Positions 13,965 through 21,970 of a DNA stretch of 44,887 nucleotides are shown here, piece after piece. Both the position numbers and the translations under genes were made by a program. This DNA is from Escherichia phage vB_EcoS_Sponge. Location: sequence record NC_073081.1. The stretch is one strand, 5' to 3'. Position 1 is the first letter of the stretch. Each line of letters starts with the position of its first letter. The notes under the pieces are model-generated. The model had not been told where the DNA came from, did no database searches, and worked only from the letters and a program-made list of their open reading frames with translations.

Positions 13965-14486
13965 TTATTTAAGTGCGCCAGTCACCAGTGTTTTTTCCAT
14001 GTTACGGAAGTCTTCCGGCGTCAAGAGGATTTTAGATCCGTCTTCGCCGGTGAGTACGACCATAGGCTGTACGTCCTGATCTGCGATGCCAAAATTAGCG
14101 GCTTTAACCGTCTTGCCCTCAGATGAAGAAGGATGCCACGTCCCAGCGGAGGCGATGGGCCAACCTTTTAGGCTGTCGAATTGTGCTGCCGTTGTGTCGA
14201 TCTGAATCTCATCATGCACGGTCATGTAAGACTCGCCCAGCAGGGCGGCATACGCTACCAGGTCAACGATGTTATCTTCCTGGTGCTTACGGTGCTGGCG
14301 CACCAGCTTCAGGCAGATCAGGAAGGTCCAGGCTTCTTGCTCGGTAAGATCGCGCCCGGTAAGCGCGTTAAACACGGCGGCTACCTGTTTAGCGCTGCGT
14401 TCTTCTTTCGCGTTGTCATAGCCGTTTTCTTTCCCGCGCTGTTCCATAGTGGTGGCGGCGTTTTTGCAGTATTCGTATGCTTTCAT
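13965..14486 (-). CDS. hypothetical protein
   Basis: 173-aa ORF with AAGGA SD; no confident motif. Confidence 0.45.
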   Translation of the reverse strand: MKAYEYCKNAATTMEQRGKENGYDNAKEERSAKQVAAVFNALTGRDLTEQEAWTFLICLKLVRQHRKHQEDNIVDLVAYAALLGESYMTVHDEIQIDTTAAQFDSLKGWPIASAGTWHPSSSEGKTVKAANFGIADQDVQPMVVLTGEDGSKILLTPEDFRNMEKTLVTGALK

Positions 14487-14550
14487 GATGTTTTCCTTTT
14501 TAGTGGGAGGCGGTATTGCCTCCCGATGTGGTTAAGATACTGCAACCAAC

Positions 14551-15021
14551 CTATTGGTTGCGAGTGAATTTTGCAACGTTTATTGCGTAAATTTTCGGGA
14601 CTAAATCGCCGCACGCCCGACGAATTGCCGCGATGTTCTTCGGACAGTCTTCAATGATGACCAGTTCCGATACGTCCGCATAGCAGACCATTTTGAACAC
14701 AGCGCACGCCTTAAACTCTGGCGGCGGGGTGTCGTCCAGCATGTGGCGCATGAACAACCGGCCTCTAGGGAATACTTCCAATTGCTCGGCTGTGGTGCCC
14801 CGGCATTCTCGCTGCCGGTTGGTCAGGTACGCGATCTCGAAGCCTTGCTCTTTGTACATGGTCAGCAGCGGCAGCATATCCATGTTCAGATCTTCGCGTA
14901 CGTGCGCTCTGTGCCACTTCGCCCAAAAGGTGGATTTAGTTTTTATTCCCGGCACCAGGTCGGCGCGCGCATCGCTTGAACCGTTAATGACGCCATCCAA
15001 ATCACAAATCAGTAGTTTCAT
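14551..15021 (-). CDS. HAD-superfamily phosphatase (polynucleotide 3-prime-phosphatase / nucleotidase-like)
   Basis: N-terminal DxDGV motif (LICDLDGVI) characteristic of HAD hydrolases; GAGGA SD before ATG 15021. Confidence 0.6.
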   Translation of the reverse strand: MKLLICDLDGVINGSSDARADLVPGIKTKSTFWAKWHRAHVREDLNMDMLPLLTMYKEQGFEIAYLTNRQRECRGTTAEQLEVFPRGRLFMRHMLDDTPPPEFKACAVFKMVCYADVSELVIIEDCPKNIAAIRRACGDLVPKIYAINVAKFTRNQ

Positions 15022-15242
15022 TTTAATTCCTCAACCAAATCCGAACGAACAACTCTGGCGGAAAACTTGTTACACACAAGATGCCAATTTGCGGTTATGA
15101 CAAGCCAGCCGGTAAGGTCCAGACCCAGGATATATTCCGGACGTGACACTCGCTTCACACGATCGCGGCGTGGGTCGATGTTATAGTCTCTTTGCATTCG
15201 GTCTACTACCGCAGGGTCGCGGTCAACGATTAAGATATTCAA
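15018..15242 (-). CDS. hypothetical small protein (TTG start)
   Basis: 74-aa ORF; only TTG start at 15242, preceded by AAGGAG; overlaps the 3-prime end of the Dam gene by 20 nt. Confidence 0.3.
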   Translation of the reverse strand: MNILIVDRDPAVVDRMQRDYNIDPRRDRVKRVSRPEYILGLDLTGWLVITANWHLVCNKFSARVVRSDLVEELK

Positions 15243-15708
15243 GGAGTTCTCCTTCGCTCATTATTTCAATTTGTGCGCTGCCGATGGGTGGCGCTTCGTC
15301 AAAGATTATCAATTGCTGGCACTTGTTATTGCTAGGCCCGACTTCGCCGGTGACGGCGTGTATAAATCTAATCCGCCAGTCCAGAAGAATTATCAGGTTT
15401 GCAGTCTTCCGGGCCAGCTTCGCCCACTTCGTCGACGTGTCCTGATTCAGTAGCATGACAGTCCGGCGTCCGTGCGCTGCACACTCGACCCACGGCAGCG
15501 GATCGGAATACGGCGGATTGCACCACTTCCACCCTTTCAACTCTGACCAGTCCACATCAAGCGCGCTGTGCTCTGCCGTGAAGTAACGCGGTAGCAGATG
15601 GTTGGCGTCGCTTGCCGCCATATCGTAACGGAATCGGAACTTACGGCGCAGCGGTTTGAATAAAGCTGGCGGCGTGCGCCAGCTATCTTTTTGCTCACTC
15701 TTCTGCAT
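15223..15708 (-). CDS. DNA N6-adenine methyltransferase (phage Dam-like)
   Basis: WRTPPALF near N-terminus and catalytic NPPY motif (WKWCNPPYSD); 161 aa as typical for phage-type Dam. Confidence 0.8.
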   Translation of the reverse strand: MQKSEQKDSWRTPPALFKPLRRKFRFRYDMAASDANHLLPRYFTAEHSALDVDWSELKGWKWCNPPYSDPLPWVECAAHGRRTVMLLNQDTSTKWAKLARKTANLIILLDWRIRFIHAVTGEVGPSNNKCQQLIIFDEAPPIGSAQIEIMSEGELLEYLNR

Positions 15709-16159
15709 GACCTGGATCTATCGCGTATAAAGGGACTTTATTGCCGGTTTTCATAACGCGCTGGACGCGCTTTGACTCCTCGGCGCTCATTGGGCGCATA
15801 TCAGTGCTATAACCACCGTTTGATGTGTGCCGCCACGCTATCAGCACCAGATCTTTCCGGTCGATCTTAGACTGGCGGCCCTTCGGTCGCACGTACGCCT
15901 CGGCCCGTTTGCAATGCTCGCGCAGACATTCGGCAGTGATGCGGTTTAGCGCGACGGTGGTTGTGTACCCAGTGCGCTGCATAATACCCATCAACTCATA
16001 CAGCAGTTCGAAGCGCTCCTCTAATTCCTTGCGCGCCTTCTCCTCGCCTTCATAGCTCGCCAGGTAGGTGTCCGCCAGCGCGTTCGCGCGTTCGGCCTGT
16101 TCGCGGGCTTCGAGGCATTGCGCGGCCCAGTAATTTTTCTCTTCTTGTAAAATTTTCAT
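15695..16159 (-). CDS. hypothetical protein
   Basis: 154-aa ORF, GGAG SD, overlaps Dam start by 14 nt; predicted coiled coil at N-terminus. Confidence 0.45.
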   Translation of the reverse strand: MKILQEEKNYWAAQCLEAREQAERANALADTYLASYEGEEKARKELEERFELLYELMGIMQRTGYTTTVALNRITAECLREHCKRAEAYVRPKGRQSKIDRKDLVLIAWRHTSNGGYSTDMRPMSAEESKRVQRVMKTGNKVPLYAIDPGHAEE

Positions 16160-16402
16160 TTATTTAATCTCCGTAGTGCGGATTTCCTTGCGAGGAATAA
16201 ATTTGCCGTCTTTCTCGACCCAGCAAGTTCCGTAACGCCATTGGGTATTACGACCTGTTTGCTCGGCATATACGGTCTTGCATTCGTAGCGTTCCGTGTA
16301 GTAAATAGCCGCGGTAGGTACGAAAATACAAACGGCAAACATGAGGGTGAGTATCACCCAAAATCGAAGGTCGCCGTCGTAGTCGAAAAATAATGATCTC
16401 AT
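16160..16402 (-). CDS. small membrane protein
   Basis: 80-aa ORF with one hydrophobic segment (WVILTLMFAVCIFVPTAAIYY); stop abuts next start. Confidence 0.4.
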   Translation of the reverse strand: MRSLFFDYDGDLRFWVILTLMFAVCIFVPTAAIYYTERYECKTVYAEQTGRNTQWRYGTCWVEKDGKFIPRKEIRTTEIK

Positions 16403-16483
16403 TGTGTCGTCTCCGGGTATTAAAAAGGGCGTCCAAACCGGACACCCTCAATATAATGCAACCAATATGATTATGCAACCAAT

Positions 16484-16807
16484 TTACGCATAAAAGTTCG
16501 GGTCGCGTGCAACGTCTACCAGGTAAAGGTTGCTTATGCGGTTGCCGTAGTGCCCTGGAGTGCGCTGGCGGCACACAACGGCGAAGCCTGGAGGGATTGT
16601 ATTGCCCGTCTCAATAATCCACGCCACGCGTGCGCCGGACAGCGTCTTGCCGTTGCATTCGATACGTGTTCCGCCATCGGCAGTGTTGATGTTGCCAATT
16701 TTGCAGCCGGTGGATTTCAGGCGAATTACGCCGGTTTTGCTGTCGTAGGTGAATAGCTGGTTAGTCATTGCGACCGAAAAGTCGATGGCTTCGAATGAAG
16801 TATTCAT
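16484..16807 (-). CDS. HNH-type endonuclease-like protein (possibly degenerate)
   Basis: N-terminal F.YDSKTG.I.LK and C-terminal GNRISNLYLV resemble HNH_3-type homing endonucleases; the canonical His is not evident. Confidence 0.4.
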   Translation of the reverse strand: MNTSFEAIDFSVAMTNQLFTYDSKTGVIRLKSTGCKIGNINTADGGTRIECNGKTLSGARVAWIIETGNTIPPGFAVVCRQRTPGHYGNRISNLYLVDVARDPNFYA

Positions 16808-17499
16808 TTTAAATTTTCCTCGTTAACCGCTATCGCGAAGCCGCGCGGAGTGAGCGACCGGATTAATTTTGTGCGGGCTGATTTGCCTCCGAGGCGACTA
16901 TACTGCTTCGAGTACCCTTTTTCAACGAAAACAGGTCTCTTCTCGGGCATACGGAAGCCGTTGCCGGTCCATAAGCAGGTCAGCTTCGGATATGAGTCGC
17001 GGGCGTTGATGTATTCAGGGAACAACGGATGTACGTCATCCTCCGGCAGATATCCCCCATACTCCCACGGGTCGAACGAGTGATCAGGCTTGCGCCACTG
17101 GGTGGAAAGCACACTGCGCGGATTCTCAATCATATATGGCACTTCGAAGAAGTCACCCAGGTAAGCGGCGATCTTCGCGGTGCGCACCGCCTTAAGCTGA
17201 AAGGCTGGGTCTTTTGCACGCTTGCGCGGGAAAGCTGGAGCGCCGCTCACCGCCAGATCCGTGCACGGAGGGAACGCATAGATGATATCTGGCGTACCAA
17301 AATCGCCATTCATCGCGCGGTCCACGAAGTCCAGATCGATAAACTCATTGCGATACCGGATTCCGCGACCATAGATACGATAGTCAAGGTAAGACCCGTG
17401 ATCGGCTTCGGAGTAGTTAAAGCAATAACACTTATGCCCCATCTCGGCAGCACGCTCAATCATCAAACCGCTGCCGTCAAACAATGACCAGATTATCAT
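16804..17499 (-). CDS. compact DNA (cytosine-5)-methyltransferase-like protein
   Basis: Motif I-like LFDGSG, motif IV-like Pro-Cys (AFPPCTDLAVSG), motif VI-like ENP, C-terminal GFAIAV; only 231 aa; ATGA overlap with helicase stop. Confidence 0.55.
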   Translation of the reverse strand: MIIWSLFDGSGLMIERAAEMGHKCYCFNYSEADHGSYLDYRIYGRGIRYRNEFIDLDFVDRAMNGDFGTPDIIYAFPPCTDLAVSGAPAFPRKRAKDPAFQLKAVRTAKIAAYLGDFFEVPYMIENPRSVLSTQWRKPDHSFDPWEYGGYLPEDDVHPLFPEYINARDSYPKLTCLWTGNGFRMPEKRPVFVEKGYSKQYSRLGGKSARTKLIRSLTPRGFAIAVNEENLK

Positions 17500-18920
17500 T
17501 TGCGCGCCTTTTTAGCTTTCATGTATTCCATCAAGTCGTCTTGAATATCTCGCTTGCTGTCGCGACGCTCGGCGACCAATTCGTCCAGTGTCCCGCGCGC
17601 CTGGATAATGTAGACGAATACCGGTCGAGGGTGTCCGGCCTGCATCTGGCGAACCGGCCCGATACGTTCAACGATCTGCGAAAAGTGCTCAAAGTTCCAG
17701 GTATCGGAGAAGATTGCCAGGTGATGTCCGCCGTCCTGCAAGTTAAGGCCGTGGCCTGCCGATGCCGGGTGTGCAAACATGATGGGGATCTCGCCCCTGT
17801 TCCACGCTTCCATATCCTTATTGCCCTGCTTACCCTTACCCAACGCGACGCCGTGCGGAAATTTCTTCTTAAGACGTGCCAGGTCATGCTTATACTGATA
17901 CGCAACGAGCAACGGCGCGCCGTTCAACTCCTCCACGATACTTTCCAGCGCGTCCAGCTTCGCGTCGTGAATCTTCACCCACTCGTCGGTCCGTTCGCCG
18001 TCTTCATCCACCTTATACACAGCGCCGGAAGCAAGCTGAAGGCACTTAATTGTCTTCGACGCAGCGTTCGCCGCTTCCACTGTTCCGCTTTCCAGTTCGG
18101 CAAATAGCTCGCTTTCAAACTGGTCGTAAATCTTGCGGGCTTTCTTCGGCAGATCCACAACAACCGGCGTATATATTGGCTTGTCACATCCGAAGTATTC
18201 AGCCGCGTCAACGGTGAGGGATACATCAGACAGGCGTTGTTGTATTTCTTTCTCGGAGTTCTTTAGCGGGGCGTGCTGCATAGTGAAGCTGCCAGGCTTA
18301 ACCGGCTTGCTAATGAACCAGCGATCGGTAAATGCCTTATAACTACTGCCGAGTCGTTCGCCACCGTCGACAAACCACGTCTGACCCCATAAGTCTTTCA
18401 GCCCGTTTGGCGCTGGTGTGCCGGTCAGATTAATCCAGCGCTTGACGTGCTTATGTGCGATCGCCGCCAGTGCGCGTGCGCGCTTACTACCCTGCTTACT
18501 GCGGTAGCCTTTCAGCTTAGTGGATTCATCGGCAACAACGACCGTAAAGGGCCACGCATCGCCGTAATAGTCAACCAGCCACTCAACCACATCGTAGTTA
18601 ACACAAACCACGTTAGCGTCGCTCTCAAGCGCTGCAATACGGTCCTTCTCCGGCCCGGTGCCGTCTACGACCAGCAGGGATGAGAACCGCCATTTCTCCT
18701 GTTCCGGGGGCCAGGTGCCGGATGCAACGCGCAGCGGGGCCAGCACCAGTACGCGGTCCTCCTGGTTCGACAGGATGCCAGTCTGGAACATTTTATTCAG
18801 CGCCCACATTGTCGCGCCGGTTTTACCGGATCCCATTGTCGCCCATATATTACATCGCTTATGCTTGAGGATGAACGCGGTTATCAACTTCTGATATTCG
18901 CGGCGTCGGAATCTTGCCAT
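17496..18920 (-). CDS. SNF2/DEAD-like superfamily 2 helicase
   Basis: Walker A MGSGKTG, DEXH-like VVADESTKLK, C-terminal helicase region; start ATG 18920 (track start 19010 overlaps upstream gene). Confidence 0.8.
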   Translation of the reverse strand: MARFRRREYQKLITAFILKHKRCNIWATMGSGKTGATMWALNKMFQTGILSNQEDRVLVLAPLRVASGTWPPEQEKWRFSSLLVVDGTGPEKDRIAALESDANVVCVNYDVVEWLVDYYGDAWPFTVVVADESTKLKGYRSKQGSKRARALAAIAHKHVKRWINLTGTPAPNGLKDLWGQTWFVDGGERLGSSYKAFTDRWFISKPVKPGSFTMQHAPLKNSEKEIQQRLSDVSLTVDAAEYFGCDKPIYTPVVVDLPKKARKIYDQFESELFAELESGTVEAANAASKTIKCLQLASGAVYKVDEDGERTDEWVKIHDAKLDALESIVEELNGAPLLVAYQYKHDLARLKKKFPHGVALGKGKQGNKDMEAWNRGEIPIMFAHPASAGHGLNLQDGGHHLAIFSDTWNFEHFSQIVERIGPVRQMQAGHPRPVFVYIIQARGTLDELVAERRDSKRDIQDDLMEYMKAKKARK

Positions 18921-18924
18921 GTCT

Positions 18925-19149
18925 TTATTCCGCCTTTTTCCAGACTTCAGTTTCACTACCCCAGTTCCTCTTTGTGGCGTCGTAGTTGGTGGCGTGTCCG
19001 ACGTGGACACCGGTAGCCCGGAAGCTCTTAAATTTTTGCCAGCACACCGTCAACGGCAGCGGATCATTCATGCCTGCGATAAACCATACGCGATCGCCTG
19101 GTTTGCATTCGCCCAGCTTGGTGAGTCGGTAATGTTCTTTCATCGTCAT
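18925..19149 (-). CDS. hypothetical protein
   Basis: 74 aa from ATG 19149 with GGGAG SD immediately after a terminator-like hairpin; longer track ORF (to 19356) overlaps the upstream gene. Confidence 0.4.
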   Translation of the reverse strand: MTMKEHYRLTKLGECKPGDRVWFIAGMNDPLPLTVCWQKFKSFRATGVHVGHATNYDATKRNWGSETEVWKKAE

Positions 19150-19400: not shown

Positions 19401-19679
19401 CTACGCGACCAATTCAGCAACCAATAAATCGCAGTCGGCTATGTTGTCGATAACACGAACGTCCGCACCGCGGCGGGCCATTCGCTCATGTTCACGTACC
19501 TGGTGCGGCTTCGGTTTTCCTCCGGGGCGCTTCACTTCGACGAACACTATTTTGCCGTTGATGATAATAATCAGGTCGGGCGCACCCGCGCGCCCCTCCC
19601 ATGCCAGTTTTCGGCAGAATCCGCCAACATCTTTCACCCGTCTCATCAGGTGGCTTTGAATCTTGCCTTCTGGAGTCAT
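19401..19679 (-). CDS. VRR-NUC domain nuclease
   Basis: 92 aa; PD-(D/E)XK signature APDLIIII...VFVEVKRPGGKP typical of VRR-NUC; start ATG overlaps polymerase stop (TAATG). Confidence 0.6.
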   Translation of the reverse strand: MTPEGKIQSHLMRRVKDVGGFCRKLAWEGRAGAPDLIIIINGKIVFVEVKRPGGKPKPHQVREHERMARRGADVRVIDNIADCDLLVAELVA

Positions 19680-21970
19680 TACTTCCTGTACCTGTACATA
19701 ATGTCGCCTTCGGCGGCAAGGGGGAAGCCTTTCGCCCATATAGGCAGGTCGCACATCAGCGCGCAAAGCTCCTCGGTCGTGTAGTCGTCGGTGTCCGGCA
19801 CTTCGGTGATCAATTCATCATGCACCGATAGAACGATTTCATAGCCCGCAGCTTCAACGCCAGGCATGGACCATGCGAGAATATCGCGGCACAACGCCTG
19901 TACGATGTTCTCCGTCAGTTTGCCGCCGTAGGTGTACTGGAACCCCCACTGGCGCGTCGTCTGATTCTCGCCCTGATATTTAATGCGGGTGCTGGTGCGC
20001 TTCTTGCCGGTGTCTTCGTCAATCTCGGTCGTGACCGACAGCGCGATGCCGGGGTAACTCATGATGCGCCCCGACGGCAACTCAATTTTCAACCACCACC
20101 CCGCGGCGTTCGGGTCGTCGCGCTCCTCGTCAAAGGTTGGGTCGTGCTTCGCCTTCGTACGGACAATCTTGAGCGCTTTTCTACCGTCCGGGCGAACGGT
20201 AGCGCCAGCCCAGTATGCTTTGCCCGGATTGCGTATTGCACACAACACCGCGTCCTCAAGCTCGGCCCAAAAGGCTACCGTCTTCGGGTGCGCCTCTCGC
20301 CACATGCGTTTAATCGCATCACACGTAAGCCATACGTTTTTCGGCAGTATGTAAGTCGGGCGCTCGTCCTTCTTGCCCGGCTTCGGCGGTCGCTTCGCTT
20401 CGTTAATGCGGGCGTACTCATAACCCCGTTTAGCCGCTGCCCAAATGTGATCGGGGAATGTGCCCTTCATTACGTCCGCCATCGCGTAAAGGTCGAGGCC
20501 CAGGTTTTTAGCGAACTGCAAGAACGCCGCGACGCCGCCACCATAGCCCAGCCCCAATTCGCACGCCTTACCGATCTGGCGTAAGTCCTTGCGGTTAGCT
20601 TTAATGTAGTCCGGGTCCAGGCCGAACATCTTACCGGCAGTCTCACAATAGATATCGCGACCGGCCTTAAACACCATTAGCGCGGTTTTCTCGCCAGCGA
20701 TCCAGGCGAGGCCACGCCCTTCCACGTTGGAATAGTCCGCTACGACAAACTTCTTACCCTTAGCCGGAATGATGCACCCGCGAACGGTCGAGGCGGTCAG
20801 CTTAGATATGTCATACGCCCAGTGTGCGGTCCCGCGTAACAGGGAGTTGATGCCGTTGGTGAGCATGTGCGACCGGACCCAAAACGAGACGTCGCTCTCG
20901 CCTTCGCGGCGCTTAATCTTCCCTTCGTGGTCGTCGCTATACTCGCCGCGTGCCAGGTTTTGAGGCTGGAAGCCTTTACCGGCCCAGCGTAGCGTGCGCT
21001 TTGCACCACCATACTGAAGACACCCACGGCGTCTACCATCGGCAGACAGACCATTAACGAGCGGATTGTACTTAGTCGATGCCGTTGATGACGCGCCGAG
21101 GCGCATTTCGATAAGCGCTTTGCCTTCGTCGGGGAAGTCCGGGTCTTCAAGCAAGTCGTTAAGTGTGGATTTCTGCGCGTTGTGGATCGTGAACGCCGGG
21201 GCGATATCACGCAGGATTGGCAGGAAGTCATTGCCTGTCAGTTTACCGCCAAATCGCTCCCAGGCTTCTTCCTTCAATTCTTCCTTATGCGCCTGCACCG
21301 CTTTGATCGCGGCGTTCGCCAGTTCAACGTCCACATAGAAGCCGCGGTCGTTGATCAACTGGTCGATAAGCAGGATTTCATCTTCCTTCGGAGTATTACC
21401 CCAGTCCGGTATGCGCCAGTAGACTTCACGCATTGCGATAATATCCAGCGCGGCATAGCGCAGAAATTTGGCCCATTCTTCCGGGTGAGTCTCGCGGGTG
21501 TATCGGCGGATTTTGTAGGTCTTAGGGGTGGGCTTACAGAATCGTTTAATCAGCGCCTTGCCTGCCTTATCCTTCGCGTGCTCTGCGTCAACGCCCAGCA
21601 CCTGGCACTGCATATCGAGGCTACCGGGCAGCGCGTGGCGAAAGGCCATAATCATGGTGTCTTCGATCTGGCTTACCGGCAGGTCGATTCCCCACTTCTC
21701 ACGGATAACCAAGCGGTCAAACAGGAGGCCGTTAGCCATCACGATTTTTGCTTTCTTGCGGGATACCTGACGGAGCGCCTTGCGCAGTTCCCGCGGCATT
21801 GTTGGGGATTCAGTGGCATCCCATGTCTGCACGCGGCCCTCGTCGATGGCGTATGTGCAAATCATAATCTCGGTGGTTGGGTGCTCTGCGTAGGCGTACG
21901 CCCCTACTTTCTTCAGGTCAACCCCGCTGAATGTCTCGGTGTCGAGAAACAGGCGTTCGAAGTCTTTCAT
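19679..21970 (-). CDS. family A DNA polymerase with 3-prime-5-prime exonuclease domain
   Basis: Exo I LFLDTET; Pol A motif A VADYSNVEGRG, motif B RQIGKACELGLGYGGG, motif C SVHDELI; 763 aa. Confidence 0.9.
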   Translation of the reverse strand: MKDFERLFLDTETFSGVDLKKVGAYAYAEHPTTEIMICTYAIDEGRVQTWDATESPTMPRELRKALRQVSRKKAKIVMANGLLFDRLVIREKWGIDLPVSQIEDTMIMAFRHALPGSLDMQCQVLGVDAEHAKDKAGKALIKRFCKPTPKTYKIRRYTRETHPEEWAKFLRYAALDIIAMREVYWRIPDWGNTPKEDEILLIDQLINDRGFYVDVELANAAIKAVQAHKEELKEEAWERFGGKLTGNDFLPILRDIAPAFTIHNAQKSTLNDLLEDPDFPDEGKALIEMRLGASSTASTKYNPLVNGLSADGRRRGCLQYGGAKRTLRWAGKGFQPQNLARGEYSDDHEGKIKRREGESDVSFWVRSHMLTNGINSLLRGTAHWAYDISKLTASTVRGCIIPAKGKKFVVADYSNVEGRGLAWIAGEKTALMVFKAGRDIYCETAGKMFGLDPDYIKANRKDLRQIGKACELGLGYGGGVAAFLQFAKNLGLDLYAMADVMKGTFPDHIWAAAKRGYEYARINEAKRPPKPGKKDERPTYILPKNVWLTCDAIKRMWREAHPKTVAFWAELEDAVLCAIRNPGKAYWAGATVRPDGRKALKIVRTKAKHDPTFDEERDDPNAAGWWLKIELPSGRIMSYPGIALSVTTEIDEDTGKKRTSTRIKYQGENQTTRQWGFQYTYGGKLTENIVQALCRDILAWSMPGVEAAGYEIVLSVHDELITEVPDTDDYTTEELCALMCDLPIWAKGFPLAAEGDIMYRYRK

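Follow-up and report, generated by a model that had tools for sequence, protein, structure and literature searches.

Two orphan methyltransferase genes and a degenerate HNH-like gene as a probable DNA-modification module of Dhillonvirus phages

Background

The closest described relative of the system treated here is the Dcm enzyme of phage KarlJaspers strain K42, which has been studied in connection with the retron Ec86. All four K42 escape mutants disrupt the 711-bp dcm gene, and the enzyme expressed alone is toxic only in the presence of Ec86 (bioRxiv 10.1101/2023.08.16.553469). According to the same preprint, K42 Dcm raises the 5-methylcytosine (5mC) content of the multicopy single-stranded DNA (msDNA) of Ec86 as measured by LC-MS (liquid chromatography coupled to mass spectrometry), a C82A/E128A/K175A/K176A mutant is inactive, and defence is lost when the CCTGG site of the msDNA stem is changed (bioRxiv 10.1101/2023.08.16.553469). 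Among the retrons that sense phage methylases, Ec86 (Eco1) senses Dcm while Sen2 senses Dam (PMC12640716). Genes for one methyltransferase of each of these two types, together with an HNH-like gene, are located at positions 15223-17499 of Escherichia phage vB_EcoS_Sponge (NC_073081.1), whose entire stretch of 44,887 nucleotides was analysed and is called the window in the following.

An earlier note, made from the letters of the window without database searches, had described this region as two orphan methyltransferases, Dam-like and of a compact C5 type, with an HNH-like gene inside the replication operon. Translation confirms the three open reading frames (ORFs) at their coordinates on the minus strand, along with the motifs that had been read from them, and their profile matches and conservation in related phages set them apart from ORFs that occur by chance. 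The overall best explanation, to which we assign a probability of about 0.8, is a conserved Dhillonvirus DNA-modification module consisting of two orphan methyltransferases and a degenerate HNH-like protein. This is no new kind of system, as the genes are annotated in many relatives and the compact enzyme family has been characterised experimentally.

The compact C5-methyltransferase

The gene at 16804-17499 (minus strand) encodes a protein of 231 amino acids (aa), a compact Dcm-like C5-cytosine DNA methyltransferase, which is 54% identical over its full length to the Dcm of KarlJaspers (236 aa). KarlJaspers Bas06, a member of the Drexlerviridae (Hanrivervirus), carries this enzyme as a 711-bp "Dcm-like" gene. 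Three of the residues mutated in K42, C82, E128 and K175, align with C79, E125 and K172 of the 231-aa protein. On the strength of the full-length identity and these aligned residues, the 231-aa protein can be placed, as judged by homology, in a family of compact phage Dcm enzymes that has been characterised by experiment. Both proteins belong to phrog_757, have the same motifs and are encoded by orphan genes of virulent E. coli siphophages; they differ in that no HNH-like neighbour lies beside the Dcm gene of KarlJaspers, and in that activity and target site have been examined for the K42 enzyme only.

The catalytic motifs of a C5-methyltransferase can be located in the translation: motif I as FDGSG (aa 7-11, window 17467-17481), motif IV as PPC (aa 77-79, window 17263-17271) and motif VI as ENP (aa 125-127, window 17119-17127). 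G9, S10 and G11 are invariant across 38 close homologues. In an alignment of 79 diverse family members with a mean column identity of 28%, C79, E125 and P127 are invariant, and F76, P77 and N126 are conserved in at least 90%. PPC aligns with FPCQ of E. coli Dcm and PPCQ of DNMT2, and ENP with LENV of E. coli Dcm. The canonical motif VIII, QxRxR, is absent, and a conserved RDSYPK (R167, D168, Y170, K172) is found at the expected spacing after motif VI.

In profile searches the protein matches phrog_757, "DNA methyltransferase", at 5e-82, so the assignment to a non-methyltransferase family that the earlier note had considered did not materialise. The family is large, with more than 2,870 homologous clusters at 90% identity and 2,005 clusters at 50% identity at E<=0.001. 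It is represented in Dhillonvirus, in T1-like Drexlerviridae (TLS among them) and in Klebsiella Webervirus, but also in Salmonella phage 7-11, in phages of Vibrio and Campylobacter and in large E. coli phages of 135-170 kb. Since members consistently measure 210-260 aa for the most part, compactness is a family trait and not the result of a truncation. The protein is thereby about 100-240 residues shorter than the PF00145 enzymes M.HhaI (327 aa) or E. coli Dcm (472 aa).

Some family members are longer. Four of them (P0246, P0260, P0269 and P0180; 326-453 aa) have N-terminal extensions of 75-200 residues without a Pfam match, which might provide the compact methyltransferase core with additional means of DNA recognition or regulation. 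A scan of ten longer members (284-453 aa), where the extra sequence is N-terminal in most and C-terminal in some, found no Pfam fusion domain in any.

Sequence searches beyond the phage families returned little. The 231-aa protein has no match to PF00145 at E<=1, and neither the protein nor the family profiles of 38 and 79 sequences gave a significant methyltransferase match in Pfam, NCBIfam or PDB sequences. The matches to PDB sequences that did appear, the kinase ToxD (a chance match) and DNMT2 at E=1 only, were discarded. The possibility raised in the earlier note, that the C5 enzyme could be non-canonical, is supported at the sequence level, where PF00145 fails to recognise it. A reading of the protein as unusual or uncharacterised is not supported, because the family has tblastn matches in 1,510 of 50,697 phage records, is labelled in many relatives as a methyltransferase (Dcm-type, C5 or generic) and includes the 5mC-forming K42 enzyme. 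Even though Pfam and NCBIfam miss the gene, the label of a compact Dcm-like C5-methyltransferase can be given to it with confidence.

Structure prediction leads to the same assignment. An AlphaFold2 model built from 38 homologues has a predicted local distance difference test score (pLDDT) of 90.9 and a predicted template modelling score (pTM) of 0.89. In Foldseek searches with this model the catalytic domains of DNMT3A/3B rank first with E values of about 1e-6, and all of the best structural matches are DNA C5-methyltransferases, aligned over 175-188 residues, whereas generic Rossmann methyltransferases align over about 120-135 residues. The modelled protein has the fold of a C5-methyltransferase catalytic domain. 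A fold of this kind could also belong to an enzyme that does not methylate DNA to 5mC, for instance one that uses carboxy-SAM (a derivative of S-adenosylmethionine, SAM) as a different cofactor to give 5-carboxymethylcytosine, one that acts on RNA as DNMT2 does, or an inactive protein. This alternative is highly improbable, given that the 54%-identical K42 enzyme yields 5mC by LC-MS against a 5mC standard and its catalytic mutant does not, that the nucleophilic Cys of motif IV and the Glu of motif VI are invariant in the compact family, and that the top structural matches are DNA enzymes.

The variable loop and the target site

In canonical bacterial C5-methyltransferases the target-recognition domain, which is situated between motifs VIII and IX, comprises roughly 80 aa or more. 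Compared with the PF00145 enzymes (E. coli Dcm, M.HhaI, M.HaeIII) and with DNMT3A/3B, the compact enzyme differs in its non-canonical motif VIII and in a candidate specificity element of about 24 aa. This element is a hypervariable loop at aa 180-203, NGFRMPEKRPVFVEKGYSKQYSRL (16891-16962, minus strand), a putative miniature target-recognition element. The loop segment is 20-45 aa long and unalignable across the 79 family members, with both flanks conserved: a strand of the form "...YPKxTCLWTG" precedes it and a C-terminal "LGGKSxxTKxIRSLTPRGFAxAV" follows. Between the window protein and KarlJaspers Dcm, 4 of 24 loop residues are identical, as against 100 of 179 upstream and 22 of 28 downstream, and the loop is of the "DNPGW" type in KarlJaspers and of the "GYSKQ" type here. 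By its position and behaviour it is what would be expected of a target-recognition element, though far smaller than that of M.HhaI or E. coli Dcm. That an enzyme of this size leaves little room for target recognition had been pointed out before, and a loop of about 24 aa bears this out.

The unusual specificity that the earlier note thought possible on account of the small size fares less well, as the defence triggered by the K42 member depends on CCTGG, an ordinary Dcm site (bioRxiv 10.1101/2023.08.16.553469). A more far-reaching proposal would be that the loop of about 24 residues may by itself set the specificity of a naturally modular, minimal C5 scaffold, with the "GYSKQ" allele methylating a site other than CCWGG, and that the degenerate HNH-like protein might be a domesticated DNA-targeting or regulatory partner; as a whole this is unlikely. 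Whatever its exact role, the hypervariable mini-loop makes the compact family a convenient system to study how C5-methyltransferases read DNA with a minimal recognition domain.

Site statistics in the window give circumstantial data on the target sites. GATC (170 sites) and CCWGG (157 sites) are not avoided, and CCGG is not depleted. Five 6-bp palindromes are depleted 2- to 16-fold relative to a maximal-order Markov expectation, namely AAGCTT (1 vs 16.5), CCCGGG (2 vs 8.1), GGTACC (2 vs 7.2), GTCGAC (6 vs 18.2) and CTGCAG (6 vs 13.7); CTAG is depleted as well, with 19 occurrences against 50 expected. The depletion of palindromes in the sequence suggests that restriction-site avoidance acts alongside methylation.

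The DNA of Klebsiella phage KP36 has been reported to be fully resistant to EcoRII, and the phage was stated to be without a cytosine methyltransferase, so that the resistance was credited to the host (PMC3620542). The KP36 protein gp74 (230 aa; L008 17553-18245) is 44% identical to the compact Dcm-like protein. It offers an overlooked alternative explanation for the EcoRII resistance, with host Dcm as a confounder.

The Dam-type methyltransferase

The second enzyme is a Dam-type phage N6-adenine DNA methyltransferase of 161 aa (15223-15708, minus strand). Its translation contains the motifs NPPY (aa 64-67, window 15508-15519) and DMAAS (aa 29-33, window 15610-15624). It matches PF05869 (phage Dam) at E=8.4e-36 with 123.6 bits (cut-off 28.1) over model positions 5-151 of 169, and phrog_111 at 2e-55; against TIGR01712 it scores 87.6 bits, which is under the equivalog cut-off of 97.05. 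As the PF05869 model itself has only 169 positions, 161 aa is a normal size for this family by sequence comparison. Its identity to the Dam of Edwardsiella phage eiAU-183 is 45%; with the T1-like Dam of KarlJaspers, which differs from it in length as well (233 aa against 161 aa), the identity is 30%. With the phage Dam family of PF05869/TIGR01712 it has in common the NPPY motif and the status of an orphan gene. The Dam enzymes of T1, HP1 and VT2-Sa are presumably members of the same family, and the TLS Dam bears the PF05869 label in the KP36 record.

As the target of the Dam-like enzyme GATC is assumed, this being the expectation for the family. The assumption fits the observation that the DNA of the T1-like phage TLS carries GATC methylation (PMC11447400). 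A Dam gene adjoins or neighbours a C5 methylase gene in eiAU-183, KarlJaspers and KP36 as well.

The HNH-like neighbour

Directly adjoining the Dcm-like gene lies an ORF of 107 aa (16484-16807, minus strand), a degenerate I-HmuI/HNH_3-like protein. The HNH-like motif region, FAVVCRQRTPGHYGNRISNLYLVD, covers aa 75-98 (window 16514-16585, by translation). Where the canonical HNH_3 motif would be "(V)DH(I)DG...NNRxxNL", the 107-aa protein reads VVCRQRTPGHYGNRISNL, meaning that Cys79-Arg80 stands in place of the canonical catalytic Asp-His, and one homologue has Leu-Arg there. The lack of an obvious catalytic His, which had already been noticed from the letters alone, is thus accurate. The homologue in eiAU-183 (151 aa, 41% identical) reads VRCIDGGIGHYAQRWTNL, including VRCIDGGIGHY, and is likewise without the catalytic His; the alignment with it shows that the position of this His corresponds to Cys79 of the 107-aa protein. 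The family is narrow, as a profile search for intact HNH relatives yielded only 12 clusters in 5.8 billion proteins, all of them from Dhillonvirus-like or Edwardsiella eiAU-like phages.

Many GenBank records name this gene a homing endonuclease, which implies a functional enzyme that entered the operon as a selfish mobile gene. The protein does match phrog_99 (HNH endonuclease) at 4e-16, among structures its model is matched best by I-HmuI, a homing endonuclease, a conserved Gly-His-Tyr triplet places His86 7 residues past the missing catalytic position, and the motif residues N89 and N93 are kept. These features notwithstanding, the mobile endonuclease is very unlikely. Besides the exchange of Asp-His and the parallel loss in eiAU-183, the score against Pfam HNH_3 (E=0.08, 13 bits) is far below the threshold of 24.8, the loop with His86 is modelled with a pLDDT below 50, and the protein has 107 aa against the 174 aa of I-HmuI, whose C-terminal DNA-binding domains are missing here.

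Its distribution points in the same direction. The HNH-like protein is present in all 160 matching phage records (introduced below), each covering at least 80% of the protein, with an identity above 90% in 152 of 160 and of at least 95% in 103. Among the matches listed, the gene adjoins the Dcm-like gene in the same position, and its record count equals that for the whole region. As all 160 records carry it rather than a sporadic few, the HNH-like gene is, on comparative grounds, a fixed core gene and not a mobile homing endonuclease. The 107-aa protein is read as a truncated, catalytically degenerate relic of the I-HmuI/HNH_3 type, which is most likely non-nucleolytic and possibly DNA-binding. 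The label "homing endonuclease" on this neighbour is unsupported, and the practical value of this result is a correction of the annotation.

A requirement of the HNH-like protein for methylation was also considered and is disfavoured, since plasmid-expressed K42 Dcm suffices alone (bioRxiv 10.1101/2023.08.16.553469). The two KarlJaspers ORFs flanking Dcm have no Pfam HNH match, which speaks against such a requirement as well.

Gene order, operon setting and conservation

About 160 GenBank phage genomes match both a 4.1-kb stretch around these genes and the first 25 kb of the window, most of them at 91-95% nucleotide identity and more than 80% query coverage, and the best-matching ones are collinear with it. 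Nearly all of these records are Escherichia or Shigella phages of the genus Dhillonvirus, for example AV129, GeorgBuechner/Bas16, EC115 and bob. By this comparison the window is essentially the complete genome of an HK578-like E. coli siphophage belonging to Dhillonvirus. In 144 of the roughly 160 records the Dcm-like protein reaches an identity of 95% or more. The labels given by relatives include "Dam-like N6-adenine methyltransferase", "Dcm-like C5 cytosine methyltransferase" and "putative homing endonuclease"; many records annotate a Dam-type methylase, a Dcm-type or C5 methylase and an HNH or homing endonuclease at this place, and others call the same ORFs hypothetical.

The Dam-like, HNH-like and C5-type genes are placed between the genes of the SNF2 helicase (17496-19010) and the DNA polymerase PolA (19679-21970) on one side and a kinase/phosphatase-like gene on the other, the latter being an ORF similar to HAD proteins and polynucleotide kinase (PNK) (14551-15021); all of these are on the minus strand. 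Overlaps of 4 bp occur at the junction of the helicase gene with the 231-aa gene and at that of the 231-aa with the 107-aa gene. On account of the shared strand and the overlapping junctions, the methylase genes appear to be co-expressed in one operon with the SNF2 helicase and PolA, in agreement with the replication operon of the earlier note. A scan of the region for promoters and terminators gave no clear internal signal, with promoter counts at chance level and terminator-like hairpins modestly in excess.

The term "orphan" used there is fair for both methyltransferase genes, because the annotation of the complete genome of GeorgBuechner, a relative with 94% identity, contains no restriction endonuclease gene. 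The neighbouring ORFs of the window have no match to restriction enzyme families in Pfam and PHROGs either.

The arrangement extends to more distant phages. Metagenomic relatives with a 55%-identical HNH-like protein keep the order PolA ... SNF2 helicase, 231-aa protein and 109-aa HNH-like protein, continuing with a 150-aa protein, Dam, a 76-aa protein and a PNK-like protein. In eiAU-183 (L004 3860-5882) the order is helicase, HNH-like homologue, a 330-aa C5-methyltransferase of the PF00145 type and a PF05869 Dam, and the 330-aa enzyme has no detectable sequence similarity to the compact enzyme. Since the order is kept in diverged relatives and the C5 enzyme of eiAU-183 is unrelated, the methylation module would thus be old, its C5 component having been exchanged non-orthologously while the HNH-like gene was retained. 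That the HNH-like gene was kept despite this exchange may be a sign of a functional connection; inherited synteny accounts for it just as well, and K42 Dcm is active on its own.

Proposed function

The module encodes two enzymes dependent on SAM, a minimal Dam-type enzyme of PF05869 and a compact Dcm-like C5 enzyme. The latter keeps the C5 catalytic core, with FDGSG as the SAM loop, Cys79 of PPC as the nucleophile and Glu125 of ENP, and its large target-recognition domain would be reduced to the variable loop of about 24 residues. The substrate of both enzymes would be phage DNA fresh from replication, with GATC and a short site of the Dcm type as the probable targets; for the latter, the K42 homologue suggests CCWGG as the best guess. 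This would shield the DNA of the progeny against restriction enzymes that cut these sites when unmethylated, regardless of how the host methylates its own DNA. An anti-restriction role of both enzymes is plausible. A known cost of carrying such phage methylases is the exposure to retrons that sense Dcm (Ec86/Eco1) or Dam (Sen2). If the 231-aa enzyme methylates CCWGG as the K42 enzyme appears to, the phage should be sensed by Ec86/Eco1, which matters for the choice of production or therapy hosts such as BL21, a carrier of Ec86. Literature searches returned nothing specific on retron Eco1 data for the Dhillonvirus phages of the BASEL collection.

Several points weigh against this explanation and must be considered. 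The sequence link of the compact family to canonical C5-methyltransferases is weak: PF00145 matches 6 of the 79 family members with a best E of 0.0039, and in hhalign the family profile and E. coli Dcm are paired with a probability of 2%, with motifs IV and VI aligned correctly. The fourth residue mutated in K42, K176, corresponds to Leu173 here, at a position that is variable in the Dhillonvirus clade. As the loop shares only 4 of its 24 residues with that of KarlJaspers, the CCWGG dependence of K42 cannot, going by the sequence, be safely transferred to the Dhillonvirus allele. Since laboratory strains of E. coli bring their own methylation of GATC and CCWGG, the non-avoidance of these sites does not discriminate between host and phage enzymes; with host Dam and Dcm protecting the same sites, site-avoidance statistics cannot assign specificity. 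The literature searched holds no methylome or biochemical data for any Dhillonvirus enzyme. Finally, the Dhillonvirus phages in the BASEL study showed a comparatively high sensitivity towards type III systems and towards EcoKI, EcoRI and EcoRV (PMC8594841). This sensitivity neither supports nor refutes an anti-restriction role, because the tested type I and type II systems recognise other sites; it does imply that any protection would be narrow.

The sensitivity of these phages also counts in favour of a rival reading, in which the methyltransferases are active mainly for purposes internal to the phage, such as full GATC methylation of rapidly replicated DNA to escape MutH-directed nicking, the marking of DNA for packaging or replication control, or the tuning of gene expression. 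In the related Drexlerviridae, according to the BASEL study, resistance to restriction does not follow in any simple way from the methyltransferase genes present (PMC8594841), the methylase genes are embedded in the replication operon and translationally coupled to it, and the usual hosts already carry Dam and Dcm. Set against this, no GATC- or CCWGG-dependent regulatory element was identified in the analysis, and the two enzymes occur as a pair again in phage groups that are unrelated, also with C5 enzymes that are not orthologous, which fits defence evasion under diversifying pressure. A hypervariable specificity loop, moreover, is what an arms race over target sites would predict. A mainly internal role is a live alternative, though considered unlikely, and a module for DNA modification with an anti-restriction function is preferred.

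Other ORFs of the region

Two ORFs lie between the HNH-like gene and the Dam-like gene. The conserved 154-aa ORF (15695-16159, minus strand; phrog_10530, 2.7e-96) has no Pfam or NCBIfam family. PHROGs lists it as "DNA ligase", some GenBank records have it as "putative DNA ligase", and the record of one relative states "Possible DNA ligase but no evidence". The label is unsupported and looks like a propagated annotation error. In diverged relatives the 150-aa ORF is its counterpart by position. The 80-aa ORF (16160-16402, minus strand; phrog_18961, 5e-51) contains a hydrophobic stretch and has no Pfam family; in the 55-60% diverged relatives L005 and L006 no ORF is called at its position, the gene order being otherwise kept.

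Next to the Dam-like gene follows a 74-aa ORF (15018-15242, minus strand). Further downstream, the interval 13965-15021 (minus strand) holds the HAD/polynucleotide-kinase-phosphatase-like protein (phrog_415) and a DUF6378 protein, and upstream a 121-aa ORF (19401-19766, minus strand) resembles a VRR-NUC nuclease by eye only. Both neighbourhoods are ordinary for this phage group.

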